A stretch of DNA of 64,000 nt from Neodothiora populina (Eukaryota), in the NCBI RefSeq assembly GCF_041146345.1, contig NW_027191410.1, positions 1,178,001 to 1,242,000 of the forward strand, written 5' to 3'. Position 1 is the first letter of the stretch. Each line of letters begins with the position of its first letter. The translations under genes were made by a program, and so were the position numbers. Of this stretch, positions 32,757 through 42,440 are shown one piece after another. The notes below the pieces were generated by a model, which saw nothing but the letters and a program-made list of their open reading frames with translations, was not told where the DNA came from and searched no databases.

Positions 32757-35700
32757 TCACTCCTCAGGCTGACCAGCCCTCATGGTGCTCACCACCTCCT
32801 GCACCTTTTCGTCTGTTCCGAATTGGACAGCCCACGTCTCCATTGTCTTCCCATCTCCTCCACCGGCGACAATCATCTTCACTCTCTTCCCCAACGGCGT
32901 GTAAGCATCCTTGACTGCCTTCTTGGGCAGCAAGGAGAAGCTGAACATGAGGCGGCCAGAGGGCGTCATGCGCATCGCGGACCAGACCTTACCTGATTCG
33001 CGATCGCGTAACAGTCTGAACATGCCGTAGCCTTTGCTCTGCCAGCCTGTTGAGCCGTCGGCCTTGGCGAACTGGAAGGCTTTGGCTTTAGACTCGAACA
33101 CCACCTCGTTGGCCTCGAGCTCCTCCGGTGTCAAGGCGGAGAGATCAGTGGATGGCGGCGTGTCCTTGACTTCGTCGCTGGGCTCGTTGGAGTCGGCGGC
33201 AGCACTGTTGTTTGCGCTATTTTTGTTCGCCAATGCTGCATCGTCTGTGCGGTTGCCACCCGTTGCGGGGGTAGAGTCGCGTGTGGATGTAGGGCTGTTG
33301 TTGCCACCAAACACCGAAGAACCGGCAGATGCCGGTGTGCCTGCGTTGTTGCCGTAGAGAGAAGGCTTTCCGGCCGGCGAGAATATGGATGCGTTCAGAC
33401 CCGAGGCAGCAGCGCTGGCAGGCTTGCTCGCATCTCCAAATACACTCTTCGAGGCAAAGCTGAATTTGGGAGCAGGCTTGTCGTGAATACTAGTCGCGGT
33501 AAACCCTCCAAATTGGGGTGGAGCCGTGGCGTTGCCAGCAGCAGTGGCTGCATCAGAGGCCGCCTTGGCCGGAGCTCCCGACGGAGTCGTCGTGCCATCA
33601 CCGACATCACCAGCTTTCGTGGTACCGAATTTGATCGGGGTGTTCTCTTGCCCCTTCCATGTGTTGTCGCCCGCTGGGGACGTCGTGCTGCTGTTATTGC
33701 TAGCACCGAATATGTTGCCTGAAGTAGATGCACCACCAAACTTGAATGGTGTGCTAGCAGCCGCAGGCTTGTCACCGCTCGAAGGCTTGCCGATGCGGTC
33801 GAAGAGGCTGGCACCTGGAGTCTTTGCGGGCGTCGCATCCTCGTCAGCGTCAGCGTCCGCATCCGACTCTTCTTCGTCGCCATTGTCATCTGTCGAATCT
33901 AGATGTCCGAAGATGTTACCTGAGGCCGAGCTGTTGGAAGAGAAGCTCGTGGCAGCTGGCTTATCGTTGCTCTGATTCACAGACCTGAATGTAAAACCAG
34001 ATGCCGGCTTGTCAGTGGTCTTGTCTCCACCAACATAGAACACACTGGCAGCGGCAGGCTTAGCCGTAGAATCACCGGCCGGCTTGAATGTGAAGCGAGT
34101 TCCGGCGGCAGCGTCAGCGAGAGCCTTGCGCTTCGCAGCTTGCTGTTCAGCATCCTTCCTCTCCCACTCTTCTTCGTCTTCGTCAGAGTCCATGTCTTCC
34201 AATTTGCGCTTCTCGCGCTCTTTCTTTTCTTCGTCTGCGGCGTTAGCACCAAATGCAGACATGAAGTTGGGACCAGCAGCTCCAGAGCCGAACTTGGGCG
34301 GCGCGGCAGTTCCGCTCGCGGCAGGCTTGATAGCCTCGAAGGTGGGTTTCTTCAGCGATGCGCTTGCGGCATCTTCAAGGAGCTTCCTGCGCTTGGCGGC
34401 TTGCTCTTCCGCGTCCTTCTTCTCCCATTCGGCTTCGTCCTCGTCGGAGTCATAGTCTTCGGCCTTGCGCTTCTCCTTTTCCTTCTTCTCTTCTTCCGCA
34501 GCGCGGGCGCCAAAAGCCGACATGAAGTCGGTGGTGCCAGCGCTACCGCTTCCAAACTTAGGCAAAGAGAGAGCTGGAGCAGCTGAAGAAGCCGAGGGTG
34601 TGCTGACCTTGAATGGGCCAGAGGTGGTGGTTGAAGCATTTGTGGAAGGCTTGAAACTGCTAGTGGCAGTCTTCGGGGTCTGTGCAGCCGCAGGGGGCGC
34701 CGGAGGAGGGTTGTTGACCTTAGTCAGTGTGGCAAATGGGTTAGCCTTTGGTGTTTCTGAAGGTGTAGCTGCAACCTTGGGTGCGGCTGGAGTAAAGCCT
34801 CCAAAAGATGGAGTAGCTGGCGTAGCAGCAGGCGCTTTGGCCTTCTCGGGGGTGTTCAAGATGTCGTTGAACAGAGACGCGGTCTGAGAAAAGGGCTTAT
34901 TTGGTGATGACGTTGACTTGGAAAAGTCGATGGTGCCCTTGCTACGTTTGCTGGGGTCGTCCTTGCTGATCTCGTCGTCGGCCTTTCTTTTGTTTGTAGA
35001 GTTCGAGGCTGGGGGCGCAGGTGCTTGTGCTTGAACAGTGCCGTTGGAAGGTGCGGCAGGAGTGGCGGCGGACTTTGTGACTGCGTCAGGGATCGCACCG
35101 AGACGTGCGTTGTTCATGATCTTGTTGTATTCATCATAGTAACTGCGTATGACGTGTCCCCAGTCCTCAGAAGGATCTAGAGTGGAGAGATGCAGTTTGA
35201 ATGCTTCGTTGAGCAAGCGGTTCTTTGGGATGAGTTCCTTTGCAGGGTATTTCTTCAGAGGCTCAATTTGAGCCTTGGGAGTCATTGGTTGCGTCTTCTG
35301 AGGAGACGACTGAGTGGCTGGTGTGGCTGGTGTGAACAGCGGTGCGGATGGCTTGGCGGGGGTAGCAGGAGGAGGAAGTGCAGCTGGTGCAGATGACTGA
35401 ACTGCAGGAGCAAAGGGTTTGGCTGCAGGCATAGCCTGCTGAGCAGAGAAAGGTTTCTCTGCGGGTGTAGGTGGTTGTGCAGAGGATGGTTTGAATAGAG
35501 GGGTAGCAGCCTGAGCAGAAGATGGTTTGAACGCAGGGGTAGCAGCCTGAGCAGAGAATGGGTCGCTGGCAGGCGTGGCTGATTGTCCAAACGACGCGAA
35601 AGGCTGAGCAGCGGGTGTGGCTGCGGAGGCAGATGGCTTGGGAGTCGAAGTGCCAAACATGGAGTTACCAAGTCCATTGGCAGCAGGTTTGGGAGTTGAA

Positions 35701-38700
35701 TCCACAGTATTGACAGCGGCCGAAGCCGGTGCAGCAGGTGCGGGCTGCTGAGGAGTTGCGCGAGCTAGGTTAGCAAAAGGATTTGAGGGTGTGGGAGCCG
35801 CGGGTGTTGAAGGCGCCATAATTTGAGGTTTCGGCGTCTGAGGTTGAAATTTCGAGTTAGCATGGGCAGTGGTTATGAACGAAGATTCAGATTGCTGAAT
35901 GAAACGAATGGGTGGTCTGAACTGGGGCTCCTGGGGTGAAGGTGCCAGTCTGGAGTAGTAGAATCCTTGAGTGGTGATCTGGCTAAATATGGCCCTCTGG
36001 GGGATTTGGGAACGTGTCGGAGTGAGCATTGGGGCCAGGGGACGTGCTGGCATGCCTGTGAGAGGAGTGGAGACCGTAGGCGAGGGAGTGTTCTGATAGA
36101 TCCCCGCTGCAGCCCTCTGTGCCGTCAGAGCGGAGAACAGGGGAGAAGAATAGTTTCCCACTGCTGCAGAAGGAGTGGAAGGTGCAGGCGGGCCTGCAAC
36201 AGGATTGGAACCCGCGGGAGAAGGGCTGTTTTGCAAGCGTGCCGCTGCAGCTCTCTGTGTAGCTAGGGCGAGAAGACTAGAAGAAGAATTTCTCGCTGCT
36301 GGAGACGGTGTAGAAGCTGCCGGCAGGCCTGTAAGACGGTTGTTTCTCAAAGGTGAGGGACTGTTGTGAAAATTTACAGTTGCTGCTCTCTGTGCTGCCA
36401 GAGCAGAGAACATGGGTGGAGAATAATTTGCGTCTGCCGGAAAGGAAGCAGCAGGCTGTGCCATTGGCAACTGTTGCTGATTGACAGGCTGTGGGGGTTG
36501 ATAGTAATTGTGGTTGTTGGCCGCTGGAGCTGCTGTATCGAACTGAGCAGCGTGTTCCATTGGGGAATCTTGCTCTTGCTCATTGAAGGGCTGCACGGTG
36601 GGAGAGTGACTGTAATCATTGGCCGCTGGAGTCGCGGAATTGAATTCAGCAGCGTGCTCCATTGGCGAATCTTGCTCATGCTGATTGAAGAGCTGCAAGG
36701 TGGGAGAGTGACTGTAATCGAAGGCCACTGGAGCCGATGAATTGAATTCAGCAGCGTGTTCCATTGGCGAATCTTGATCATGCTGATCGAATGGCTGTAC
36801 AGCAAGAGAGGGATTGTAATCATCGACTCCTGGAGTGGCTAGAGAGAGCGCATCGATTTGTTCCATGGGCACATCTTGCTCATTGAAGTTATAATAATTG
36901 TCTGTTGGATTATTTTGGAGGAGGGCAACGTCCTGTGCCGTTGGCCATTGCCCGGCAGGAGAGTAACCGTTGCTGGTTCCCAGTGCAGGTCCTTGGGAGA
37001 GAGCGGGATTCAGAGCCATCTGCAGTCGCGATTCAACGCTAGTGGGAGAATAGTTGTGCGCAGTGGCTTGTGCAGGCTGCGAAAAAGGAGCATGAGGTGG
37101 AGCCAGTGGCATGGGAGTCTCTTGCGGAGCAAGATTCTGCATGGCAGCAGAGAAGCCGTAGCCGTTGGCTGGTGACTTTGCCGGAGATGTCTGCTGGGCT
37201 CGCGGAGATGGAGCAGCAGCGCGAGTGACAGCTGGGGTGTACTTGTAGACAATAGTCGGGGGAGGAGCGCGAGACCACTTGGGATTGGAAGCGCCCTGGG
37301 GCGTTGGCAGCGAAGGCCTGGGTGCCTGGGTCGAGACATTCGAGGACTTGGTGAGGAGATTGGTCACCTCTGCACCACGAGTAGGTGTGGGAGACAGGAC
37401 TGGCGGAGCAGTTTGGTTTGCAGGTGTAGCCAGGACCTGGTGAGCAACTTGGGGTGTAGGGGTGGTCAGGATCTGCTCGGCAGCTTGAGAGGTAGGTGTA
37501 GGTGATCGCGCGAGCAATGGTCTCAGGCCAGCAGGCCTTCTTTGGGGCAGTCTCTTCCTGGTGGGTGGCATGGCCAGCTCTGCAGGTGGGCTGGCAGCTT
37601 TCAGAGCTTCGACATAGGCATTGGCCTGGGAGATGGAACAGTGGCCGGACGCGTCCTAGGCGGCGGCGATTCCATGCTTCTTCAGGTCAAACCATTCTTC
37701 TGCCTGGTTGCGCCCAGGCCTCGCTTTCGTAGGTCTTTTGTCCTCGGTGGAGTCCTTGTCTTGCACCTTTGGGGTGGCAGGAACCACAGGGTCGGCGGCC
37801 AGGTTGAAGAGGGAGCCCTGGAAACCAGCACTCCTTGGCAACTTCCCGAAGGTGTCGAACTTGGTAAATGGATTGGCCAGTCCTTGGCCCTTGGTAGAAA
37901 ATTCAAATTTTGATGGGTCACTTACTGATGCGTTTGTGCTAGGCACTGGGTTTCTGACATATGAGAGCAAATTCCTCTGTGCCTCGATAGGCAGTTCCTT
38001 GAGGTCAAGACCAGCAAGGCTTGTAGCGCTCTGTTTGTTTACATTGTCAGTACGCGTGTCTAAAAAAAAAAAAAAGATAACAAATAAGAATAAAGAACAA
38101 ACTCACCTTATATTTCTCGTCAGACTCTCTGACAATTCTCTCCAGCTCATCCAATCTACCCTGCGAAGCGAGTCTGGGGCCGGCGTCTTCGATCTCCTTG
38201 ATCTCAGCATCGCTGATGGCCTGGTTGGCTGCAGGTTGACCGAACATGTTTGTGGTATTGGTCTGAGATTCTGTGGGTTTCGCAGGAGTGGTTGTGTTGG
38301 TGGCACCGAATGAGAAGGAGGGTGTCTTTGCAGGTGTCTCTGTAGCAGCTGGTGCACCGAAAGAGAAGGTGGGTGCAGTGCTTGGCTGTGATGGCTTTGC
38401 AGGAGTCGTCGAACCGAACGAGAACGAAGGGGTCTGTTCTGCGGGTTTGGGAGTGGAGGAAGAATTGAAGCTGACCACTGGAGTGTTGCTTGTGGCGGCA
38501 GCTGGAGTTGCTGCAGATGATGTTCCTCCGAAAGAGAAAGACGGAGCGCTCGCTGCAGGTGCTGGAGAAGCGGGCGCAGGCGAAGCTGGTTGTGTTCCAA
38601 ATGTAAAACTCTTGCTTGTCGCTCCGTTTGACGCAGATGCTGGTGCAGGTGCTGCTGCTGTCGCTCCGAAACTGAACGACGTGGGAGCTGCGGTCTTGAG

Positions 38701-39476
38701 AGGCGAAAAGGAGGGCGTGTTGTTTTGTGAGGCACCGAATCCACCGAAGCTCTGTGATTGACCCGAGAGACTGGCAAATGGATTGCTCGCTGGCTGTGAA
38801 TTCGATGTCGAAGCTCCGAACGTGAAAGAGGACGCGGTGGGTGGCGCGAATGCTGGTTGTTGCTGTGGTGGAGCAGGTGAAGGACTGAATGTGCTCGCGC
38901 CAAAGCTGTTCTGTGCTGGTGCAGGAGCTCCAAAGGGATTGTTTAGAGCAGGAGGAGCGAGGGGTTTGCTGGGTGAAGTTGATCGAGAAGAAGCGGCGCT
39001 GCCTCTCTTGAGTGGTTTGATGCTGTTTGAACAAGACGTGTGTCAGTTGTTGTTGCTGTTATTGTTGTTGTTGTTGTGGCTGCCTGGTTTCCCTGTTGAG
39101 CGGAACTCTTGCTCTACCAGCCACCTTCTTGTTCCGTCCACATGCCCCCTATGGTCATCGCTTTGGTCCCTATTTCTGAAACAAGGGTGGCTAGCAGAGT
39201 AGGTGAAGGTGATGTTGGCCCAGCCGTCTTCCTCGTTTGCTTTTGTTCCCTTCCACCTATTTCGACCTTGACCTTGACCTGGACCTTGACCTTGGTACCA
39301 ACGGACCCACCTTTACGTCTACAGACAAGTGACAGAAAAACCAAAAGAACAACATACCTTCTCTTAGCCAGCTGAGCAGCAGTGGCCTTACGCGGAGGGT
39401 CGTCCGGCGCATCCTTTGCCTCTGGTCCTCCATATCTCGCGCTTCCGCCCTGAGCGTCGGCGAATCTCTTGGACAT
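32757..39476 (-). CDS. NUP2: Nup2-like nucleoporin (NUP50-type N-terminus, FxFG repeats, C-terminal RanBP1 domain)
   Basis: Predicted exons 39476-39358, 39022-38107, 38030-37926, 35837-32757 give 1406 aa. RKATAAQLAKR/SIKPLKR N-terminal motif, SFSFG repeats, RanBD (VFESKAKAF, WQSKGYGMFRLL). Intron 3 is itself an in-frame ORF (see findings). Confidence 0.85.
36045..36430 (-). repeat. 135-138-nt (45-46-aa) tandem repeat x3 inside the Nup2 intronic ORF
   Basis: ALxxQRAA...N(S/T)PSP units at about 36106, 36244 and 36379. Confidence 0.8.
36500..36895 (-). repeat. 102-nt (34-aa) tandem repeat, 3 good copies plus 1 degenerate, inside the Nup2 intronic ORF
   Basis: QDSPMEHAA units anchored at 36552, 36654 and 36756 (exact 102-nt spacing). 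Confidence 0.9.
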
Positions 39477-40015: not shown

Positions 40016-42440
40016 TCAGTCACTGTCAAGCTCGACAACCACCCTCTGCCTCTTGCGTGCTGCCTCGCCGTACTCAGCCCCTGCTCGCCCTCCCTCCCTA
40101 GCCATTTCCTCAACCAGCTGATCTGCCACAAGATCATCCTCACTCTGCTCATGAGCCCCTGTCGTCGCGCCAAACACCGCATCCAGATCTCTGAACTTGT
40201 GAGTCCCACGCTGTGCATCTTTCCTTGCCGCGTAGTCTGCTTCCGTGCTGCCAAACACCACATCTTGCATATCGTCACTGTTGCCATCGTCGTTATTGTC
40301 ACTGTCTTCTTCATCCTCGTCGCTCTGTGTCTGCACTGCGTTCAATCCTCCAGCAACCAGTGCAGACGCGGCAAACTTTTGCGTGAGACCCTTCATCTCT
40401 CTTGATTTTCCCGATCCTGCAGGCCTTCCTGGTCCCCTGTGTCCTTTCTCGCGCGCTCGTTTCGCCCTTCTCATGGCATCCAGGTGTTTTGCTTGCCGAG
40501 GTGATATGCTGATCTCACCTCCAAACTGTGTGTGGGAACCGACGTCGACGTTCTTGAACTCGTGTAGATCAAGCTGTTGCACACGGTTCTCACCCCAGAA
40601 CCACGTCTTACCAACTCGACGAATGATTCGAGGATCTTGTGCCGCACCTTGTTCCCGACTGGCCATCGCTCCTTGTAAGCCGAGCGAGAGGTCTGCCCGC
40701 ACTGTGTCTGTTTCTGTCGCCTTCTCCTTGCCCTTCCCTTTGCTATTGATAGGTATGAAGCTTGCGACTGGGGGAAGTTCTCGTGCACTTTGTGGAAACC
40801 AGAGCATCATTGCCTCGTCCTCGTAGCATCGTCCGAGCACTCTTTGAAATGGCATCTGCATGCGCTGGCTAGGTTCGTGGCTGTAGAACCAAGATCCATA
40901 GCCATCCAGTCCCTGGGGTAGCTCTCCGGACTGTGCGTCGATCGGTGTCTTGCTCAGCCCATGAGCCTTACGTGCATCTGTTGTATAAACAATGCCTGAC
41001 ATGTGCACACACGAGAACCATGGTAGGGCTTGTCTGTCGTCATCATCATCGCTGTCATCTGACTCTTCGACGGAGTCAATGTCCAAGAACTTCAATTTGA
41101 TGGCCGTGATCTTCATGACATCCTTGACATGGGTTTGGTCTTCATCGCCGGGTGCTGGCATAAGGCGGACAGCATCTCCGACCACAAGGAGCTCCGCGCC
41201 TAGATAGATGCCTTTACAGAAAATCGTAGCAGCAGGATAGACGCCTTTGAAGTGGTACTTTTTCAGCAGAGAAAAGGATGAGGCTGCTCCTATAGCATTT
41301 GAAATTGTTTGGTGAACGTCTGTTGTCTTGTGTAAGAACTGCTCCGAGAAGACGAAAGGTCGAATCTGTCGCAGAGGCAGATAGGTAGATCTCTTGCTCC
41401 AGAGCTTGTCGTCTTGACCTATCCGTGGCATGGGTTCGACGCGGAAACCTGAATAATTGACAGGAAACTCCTTGCCTTCGTCACTGATCAGGTCTTCAAG
41501 TGTTGCTGGCTCTACGCAAGCTTCCGCGACCACTCCTGCTTCCCAGCTAGGCCGATGGGTTGACCAGGACATAGACTGTTGATCCCAGATCCTGAAGATC
41601 CCATCGGTCTCATCCAATGAGATGGTTTGATAGTCGTGGAGTTTGCGGACAAAAATGACCAGCTCGCCCTTTCGTGGCAGCCATCTTGGTTGTTTTCGCA
41701 ACTGCTCCAAGTGCTGGGGAAGAGTTTCGTTCTCTATACACCAATCGATTGAGTCCGGTTCTTCGATAGATTTACTGAGCCCTTTACTACCAGCCTCTTT
41801 CAGCTCTGCTACTAGACGCCGGTAAATATCAGAAGTCCCTTCTTCATCGACCATCTCAGAAAAATCCTGCTTTGGGGCGCGAAACGTTGGAGGAGAGGGG
41901 AAAACCTGTCGCTCAGCTGGCGCTTGCACTGGCTGAGGTGGAGGTGAAATTTGACGAACACCCATGGTTGGTTGTGCGGTTGCTGTTCGTCCTAGAGAAG
42001 AGTGCCCGCTTGGTCGTACACAACCTTTGCATTGACAGCTACTGCTGCCGTTCTTCTGAAGACTGACAAAATGGTCATAGAATTCTGGCACCGAGCGAAA
42101 AGCATAACCTGAGGGATGTCCATACACGTAACTGTCGAGCTATTTGTTTGCTCAGCAGGTTTTCGATCGTACACGTGACGTGACTTCTACTTACGTGTTT
42201 CATGTCTTCACAAAACCTGCCATAGAGTCTATACCCCGTAGGTAGCCTTTCGATGGCATAGGAGAACCCCGGCTTCGACTCGTTTCTGTCACTCATCCAT
42301 CTGTTGCCAACACTTGTGCGGAACCTTTCCACCCTACTGGTATCGAGAGCGCTCACAGTGCTGTCATGACCTGGCCATTTGGACGCGTTACCATCAGAGT
42401 AGTCCGTGATGGGAATCACTTGATTGATTACTGGGGGCAT
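40016..42440 (-). CDS. clr2: Cryptic loci regulator 2 (Clr2)-like silencing protein
   Basis: Exons 42440-42195 and 42139-40016; SDG, LPTGYRLY, DSYVYGHPSG..FRSVPEFYDH, CQCKGC, PRKGELV, GIYLGAELLVVGDAVRL. Confidence 0.85.

Follow-up and report, generated by a model that had tools for sequence, protein, structure and literature searches.

Does the single in-frame UAG inside a large intron of a fungal nucleoporin gene mark a site at which the message is recoded, or is it a plain stop codon? The codon lies on the minus strand of the 64,000-nt stretch of DNA that we analysed (the window), and an initial annotation, made from the letters alone, proposed that it is a recoding or A-to-I editing site. 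The spliced gene model is letter-for-letter P0001, the best homologue and a protein named Neodothiora populina (Dothideales, Dothideomycetes). This confirms the suspicion that the host might be a Dothideomycete, and editing has been reported for Sordariomycetes and Pezizomycetes only (PMC11156358; this and all other papers cited here were available as partial texts, and statements that rest on them are limited to those parts). The gene is Nup2, with a weak NUP50 match in exon 1 and a RanBP1 domain at its end (Pfam). P0001 maps onto four exons, and the TAG falls in the 2,088-nt intron between the last two of them (37925-35838; Table 1). Upstream of Nup2, the neighbouring gene (40016-42139, minus strand) is for a silencing protein of the Clr2 type (Pfam PF10383, PF16761).

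Table 1. The Nup2 gene and the features of its third intron, with positions in the window.
Feature	Position	Strand	Evidence
Nup2 exon 1 (has the start codon and encodes a basic N-terminus like that of NUP50)	39358..39476	-	Pfam NUP50 E 0.016, under the curated cut-off; P0001 aa 1-39
Nup2 exon 2 (FG repeats and the beginning of a short module that the Dothideales conserve)	38107..39022	-	P0001 aa 40-345; RNA joint 38030-38107
Nup2 intron 2, 76 nt	38031..38106	-	76 nt skipped by a joint in X2 (depth 19.3)
Nup2 exon 3, 35 codons	37926..38030	-	P0001 aa 346-380; X2 contig
Nup2 intron 3, a retainable coding intron of 2,088 nt (696 codons) in phase 0, with GTAAGT...GCTAAC...CAG	35838..37925	-	X2 joint 35837-37926; coding score; same-position open intron in L011 and homologous proteins
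Intron 3, 5' coding part, 89 codons, F-x-G-S-[IL]-F-N motif at 37823-37803	37659..37925	-	Aligns to P0002, z 17
Lone in-frame TAG, A at 37657	37656..37658	-	Sequence, frame count, X1/X2 contigs
Predicted hairpin; the A is third in the 7-nt loop CUAGGAC (37659-37653)	37644..37667	-	Folding, 5/6 windows; folding energy not above shuffles
First in-frame ATG past the stop (MPPTRKR...), possible internal start	37569..37571	-	Sequence
Three 102-nt in-frame tandem repeats in intron 3, downstream of the stop	36517..36823	-	82% matches, 0% indels
Nup2 exon 4: central conserved region and RanBP1 domain (about 33116-32778)	32757..35837	-	Pfam PF00638 E 4.4e-7; P0001 aa 381-1406

Intron 3 is truly spliced out, and the ordinary 1,406-aa Nup2 needs no recoding. 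The site is covered by one sample, perhaps the source of this DNA, which was sequenced as a DNA run (X1) and a spliced-RNA run (X2); contigs of X3 and X4 stop short of the TAG. (X2 is listed as "DNA?" but carries two GT-AG joints, so we took it to be RNA.) One X2 contig, with a depth of 19.3, skips both the 76-nt and the 2,088-nt introns and includes exon 3. As intron 3 is really spliced, the main Nup2 protein can be made without any recoding. Splicing from the donor at 38106 directly to 35838 or 35748, which would omit exon 3, is absent from the RNA. (Intron 1 lies outside the RNA contig coverage.) A second in-frame branch and acceptor (GCTAAC...CAG) is present at 35748-35774 on the minus strand, 90 nt beyond the acceptor that is used, and no X2 joint leads to it.

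Sequence from within intron 3 is also found in X2: five contigs with depths of 2.3 to 3.2 span most of the intron, at about one eighth of exon depth. These contigs may come from retained mRNA, pre-mRNA, or DNA carry-over. They leave both ends of the intron bare (37774-37925 and 35838-35892), as would fit either assembly trimming or an internal transcript start; we did not adopt the transcript start, as trimming explains the gaps equally well. In X4, a run of another organism code, the region 36164-37648 is represented by short, near-identical, high-depth pieces with loose ends. We ruled out an assembly error as the source of the TAG, as an X1 DNA contig and an X2 RNA contig both read TAG and no other letter was seen.

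The reading frame around the TAG is as the initial annotation described it. The minus strand at 37661-37643 reads GCC TAG GAC GCG TCC GGC C, with a lone in-frame UAG; the frame is open for 89 codons upstream within the intron, from the donor GTAAGT at 37925, and to the end of the gene downstream. Followed on through exon 3, the upstream frame is open for 148 codons in all, up to 38102, and 1,632 open codons follow the TAG until the Nup2 stop at 32759-32757. Reading the UAG as Trp would indeed give HGIAAAWDASG. The TAG is the sole stop of intron 3 in its frame, and the 606 intron codons behind it contain no second stop or frameshift; across 38030-35839, the other two sense frames have 13 and 21 stops. 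We would expect 64-204 disruptions of the intron frame per unit of neutral divergence, and TAG accounts for 52% of its possible nonsense changes. As there is no second disruption behind the TAG, the frame, if it is dead, should have died less than about 1.5-5% of neutral divergence ago.

Intron 3 is coding in origin. Exitrons are in-frame retained coding introns within protein-coding sequence, and the splicing of intron 3 has their properties (canonical splice sites, removal in RNA, a length of 3n, and phase 0). In a dicodon model for which 780 kb of this genome served as training data, the intron frame scores 0.41 before the stop and then 0.42, 0.27, and 0.20, as compared to 0.30-0.57 for the exons, while the other sense frames score negative. 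In the orthologue P0002, the first 89 intron codons align with z = 17 and the 3' end with z = 5.8. The 102-nt repeats behind the stop have diverged by 18% with no indel, and synonymous differences are more frequent (pS = 0.34-0.39) than nonsynonymous ones (pN = 0.14-0.22). A second repeat family gives the same picture (pS = 0.55-0.69, pN = 0.18-0.26). The excess has a Fisher p of 0.052 for one pair and of 0.001 when pooled, with bounds that were chosen on peptide likeness. Intron 3 also contains three degenerate A-L-x-x-Q-R-A repeats (36134-36428, minus strand), spaced by 135 and 138 nt and all in frame. Protein-level constraint on the intron is thus apparent in its coding score, in its repeats, and in the identity of the insert among Aureobasidium proteins (see below). 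It is not stop-free when retained in this genome, with its one TAG, whereas the corresponding sequences of L011 and of 14 homologous proteins are.

These relatives come from a set of 87 homologues that is skewed towards open frames, because a stop in an orthologue would show up as an annotation with the intron removed or as an ORF that starts inside the intron. (P0004, P0011, and P0018, known as proteins only, are annotated without the insert, and P0003 and P0014 are ORFs that begin inside the intron.) Of the 87, 14 read through an insert of 182-280 residues at the same position without a stop, and two more begin inside the insert. The borders of the 14 inserts run from Val (GT) to Ala-Asn...Gln or His-Thr-Asp...Gln, that is, to a branch site and CAG. 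In L011 (2169-2732), the sole read-through case at the DNA level, the insert is 564 nt long, has the form GTGAGT...GCTAAC...CAG, and is open. Among named Aureobasidium proteins, the first 100 residues of the insert are 74-81% identical, versus 65-81% for the next exon; between more distant pairs, the identity of the insert falls to 26-55%. The inserts of the Aureobasidium group share a conserved Trp-Gln segment, for which we obtained no usable Atlas match. Public annotations of Aureobasidium melanogenum disagree about the insert, which is retained in P0017 and spliced in P0018. Three A. pullulans-like Nup2 loci (L003-L005) have neither intron 3 nor its insert, so the insert is dispensable there; L004 and L005 are also without intron 2.

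Profile comparisons between the Neodothiora peptide and the Aureobasidium group were not significant, so the homology of the inserts rests on their position and splice anatomy. Searches for relatives of the peptide gave none among 1,327 candidates, no match in a second search, none among 214 shorter proteins, and no usable match in the Atlas. The F-x-G-S-I-F-N motif, which here lies within the intron, is carried by 17 of the 99 proteins scanned, including Nup2s of Aspergillus, a Eurotiomycete. Six loci (L007, L008, L010, L017, L024, and L026) carry the motif, and our scan found no in-frame intron around it. This distribution suggests that intron 3 arose from old exon sequence. Unusually long Nup2 homologues (1,536-1,909 aa) also occur outside the Dothideales (P0023, P0032, P0046, P0051, P0061, P0068, and P0085). 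In P0023 and P0032, a charged segment follows a G-S-M-F-N motif, and L024 and L026 have no in-frame splice pair around it. Overall, the solid result is that Nup2 of the Dothideales has a conserved, retainable coding intron and that one stop breaks it here.

The initial annotation had itself counted a stop position that is not conserved among the findings that would speak against recoding, and among the relatives that we saw, the position is not conserved. None of the 14 read-through homologues has a stop, and Trp is never opposite the TAG, in a column that is unstable: three MAFFT modes and pairwise alignments place a gap, V, K, or Q there. Lys and Gln each have a codon that is one base from TAG. 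Because the column is unstable, the codon may still descend from Trp, and the Trp-Gln segment of Aureobasidium may or may not correspond to it. Furthermore, the stops that are corrected by editing in Fusarium often come from codons other than Trp, and in other classes, too, single species can have such stops (PMC10776026), so the missing Trp weakens the case for editing but does not refute it. Just past the stop, DASGHCSISQA ranks first in the intron when compared to DPDGLYSIGQA (D-x-x-G-x-Y), with p of only 0.076. A match to P0005 (z = 6.8) looks like Pro-rich composition, and we discarded it.

These alignments also bear on plain ribosomal readthrough of the UAG in retained transcripts, which had been offered as the alternative to editing and which we consider highly improbable. 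It would make use of the intact coding frame behind the stop. However, known leaky stop contexts include UGA-CUA and UAG-CAR-YYA, and UAG-GAC-GCG is neither of these; the stop is absent from the homologues that read through the insert; and a low rate of readthrough on a minor transcript would yield very little protein.

Another possibility, and in our view quite an unlikely one, is that the TAG is a working terminator. Retention would then lead to a 469-aa N-terminal Nup2 or to a decay-prone "poison" form that tunes the dose of Nup2, and the downstream frame would be either a young relic or used from the ATG at 37571. The part of the intron before the stop is its best conserved part, with a motif that is common to the Nup2s of other classes, and intron RNA is present at the level given above. 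The ATG has a GCC ATG context and is followed by a basic peptide, and one alignment mode pairs it with a Met of P0002. However, four out-of-frame ATGs (37695-37615) precede it, no relative seen has a stop at this site, and pre-mRNA or DNA carry-over could account for the low-depth contigs from the intron.

The local context of the TAG is the best evidence for editing. The preference in Fusarium is for C or U at −2, U at −1, A or G at +1, G at +2, A or G at +3 and +4, and hairpin loops (PMC9600606). At five of these six positions the TAG has a preferred base (C at −2, U at −1, G at +1, G at +2, and A at +3); its C at +4 is not preferred. The U, G, and A that the initial annotation pointed to are therefore present, but the U at −1 and the G at +1 are automatic for any UAG. 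At the informative positions (−2, +2, +3, and +4), three of four bases are preferred, and at least three are preferred at 23% of 11,981 comparable codons. The 19-nt hairpin with a bulged UA that had been proposed does fold as described, but only at the level of chance (−4.9 kcal/mol, z = −0.18, with 84 of 200 shuffles as good), and we rejected it because another fold wins once the flanks are included. The A at 37657 is predicted to be unpaired (p > 0.99) in a hairpin loop with all six window sizes, and with five of the six it is at position 3 of the 7-nt loop CUAGGAC. Among 800 natural UAGs, 255 are in predicted hairpin loops, 47 (about 6%) combine a loop with at least three of the four preferred bases, and five are at position 3 of a 7-nt loop, although this last criterion was chosen post hoc. 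Given the preferred bases and the predicted anticodon-like loop, the site looks editable.

Two genes of the DUF726 family, to which Ame1 belongs, are present in this genome: one is of the Ame1 type, and the other is of a long type that we take to be Mil1-like. Editing depends on Ame1, in which MV500-501 replaced an ancestral KN in Sordariomycetes (PMC11087585). We found neither a duplicated copy nor this MV: the Ame1-type gene is single and reads AKS at the corresponding distance, about 30 residues before the catalytic Ser (placed by counting, not by alignment to FgAme1). As far as the available part of the review goes, genome-wide editing has been reported only for Sordariomycetes and for Pyronema (Pezizomycetes) and was not found in Aspergillus nidulans or Botrytis (PMC11156358). 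Our literature search, which reached few subscription papers, found no report of editing in Dothideomycetes.

We also surveyed this genome for other lone stops in protein families. All 13 lone TAGs within domain matches are intronic (kinase, 8/8; Fungal_trans, 4/4; DUF726, 1/1). (The kinase survey comprised 120 matches, with 126 of 161 candidates scored, and the Fungal_trans survey comprised 88 matches.) There was no lone TAG among the 150 WD40 matches listed. Genes for RID, AMA1, SPO22, and VEFS-box proteins, families with corrected stops in Fusarium (PMC10776026), have open frames. As the frames of the RID-like (L032, G000:C3), AMA1-like (L037, G000:C5), and SPO22 (L154, G000:C5) genes are open, parts of the sexual toolkit look intact. 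We did not identify an orthologue of PUK1 in this genome. DUF3716 had no match in the genome, and 9 of 318 MFS candidates were scored; both are uninformative about editing. In 780 kb we counted 16 lone-stop pairs (6 TAA, 6 TGA, and 4 TAG), which were not resolved one by one. We thus found no other candidate for an editing-corrected stop in the families surveyed, which cover a small part of the genome.

As six of the eight lone kinase TAGs are splice acceptors, the TAG in Nup2 might also act as a second acceptor for exon 3. Removal of only 270 nt (37925-37656) would fuse exon 3, in frame, with the 606 codons behind the TAG and give a 2,012-aa isoform with no recoding; the phase and length of such an intron fit. 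This has little chance of being correct, because the nearest branch-like sequence (TTTGAC) is 31 nt away with two AGs in between, an arrangement like that of 1/45 and 2/45 sampled introns; because the joint 37926-37655 is absent from X2; and because the sequence lost would be the part of intron 3 that is best conserved.

What, then, of editing? As in FgBUD14, there could be a double switch, in which stage-specific retention is combined with editing by Tad2-Tad3 of UAG to UIG (Trp) to give a 2,102-aa Nup2. A real coding frame is interrupted by a site that looks editable, and to that extent the initial annotation holds up. The predicted loop and the preferred bases, the intact downstream frame with pN < pS, the frequent non-Trp origin of such stops, and their occurrence in single species would all fit. 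Editing is also known, rarely, from Fusarium hyphae outside the sexual stage (PMC11169179). However, the editing would have to occur outside the lineages for which it has been reported and with an Ame1 that is apparently not of the editing type. The stop is absent from the orthologues seen, Trp is not found opposite it, and there is no further candidate stop in the families surveyed. The one X2 contig over the stop (37186-37773, depth 2.3, one library) has an unedited A; as contigs drop rare variants, it says little against editing at a low level or in the sexual stage. A long Nup2 behind two locks (retention, and Tad2-Tad3 editing of a UAG that mimics an anticodon loop, with no Sordariomycete-type Ame1) is therefore a possibility that we hold only tentatively.

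The best reading of the TAG is that a coding intron, conserved and retainable, has recently acquired a nonsense codon, and to this we assign a probability of about 0.5. Most Nup2 transcripts lose intron 3 and encode the usual Nup2 of 1,406 aa. Intron 3 would be sequence that once was coding or that codes optionally, and it is open in related Dothideales, where its retention would insert about 180-320 low-complexity residues to give a long isoform. In the lineage of Neodothiora, the insert would have grown to 696 codons under selection, and a single-base nonsense change would then have created the TAG, which could be tolerated, as splicing yields the main protein. The product of transcripts that keep the intron would now stop after 469 aa, short of the central region and the RanBD, and nonsense-mediated decay may clear these transcripts. 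As no second strain or close sister species in our data covers the TAG, we infer that it is recent from the frame behind it. Two points argue against this reading. First, a random nonsense site would usually have a poorer editing context (47/800, or 5/800 for the loop). Second, the 606 intact codons behind the TAG demand a young age, of less than about 1.5-5% divergence. The implied youth of the dead frame and the good context are why we keep editing as an unlikely explanation instead of discarding it.

Whichever reading is correct, a frame-keeping intron can add 180-700 low-complexity residues to a nucleoporin that is essential in Aspergillus. If the TAG is a plain mutation, then the long Nup2 isoform has been lost naturally in this strain. 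If it is edited, then it is a single-base and directly testable site for asking which fungal classes edit their mRNA, and a long Nup2 behind two locks would bring a further class of fungi, and a nucleoporin, within the reach of mRNA editing.

The system most similar to a double switch is FgBUD14 of Fusarium graminearum, in which editing was demonstrated in a lineage with Ame1-dependent editing (reviewed in PMC11156358, PMC11050156). As in FgBUD14, the intron of Neodothiora Nup2 holds an in-frame UAG and, besides being spliced, may also be kept. Unlike in FgBUD14, we saw no edited base, editing is not reported for the lineage, and the intron measures 2 kb and is open in relatives. The lone UAG in the coding frame of an annotated intron, with an editable context, also resembles the PUK1-type PSC pseudogenes of Sordariomycetes (PMC4817773, PMC10776026). 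In those pseudogenes, the supposed intron is an artefact of annotation, and the gene is dead unless its message is edited, whereas the intron of Nup2 is really spliced (X2, depth 19.3) and a full protein is made without editing. The table of 71 PSC genes, as available, describes no nucleoporin, although many of its entries are "hypothetical" (PMC10776026).

Aspergillus nidulans Nup2 has a similar plan, with an N-terminal importin-alpha-binding region, FG repeats, and a C-terminal Ran-binding domain; its central targeting region (aa 401-802) is essential, and the protein is tied to mitotic chromatin (PMC5584150). The 469-aa Neodothiora product would be without the central region and the RanBD (by inferred position, not by alignment to Aspergillus). 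We found no alternative long isoform of Aspergillus nidulans Nup2 in the literature (PMC5584150, as available) and no paper on a coding intron in Nup2, in a search that reached few subscription papers. Finally, intron 3 differs from exitrons in that the Neodothiora copy has a stop, so that only the copies of its relatives fit fully, and in that retention is suggested by low-depth contigs only. Like exitrons, it has canonical splice sites inside coding sequence and a length that is a multiple of three, and its retention alters a low-complexity region.
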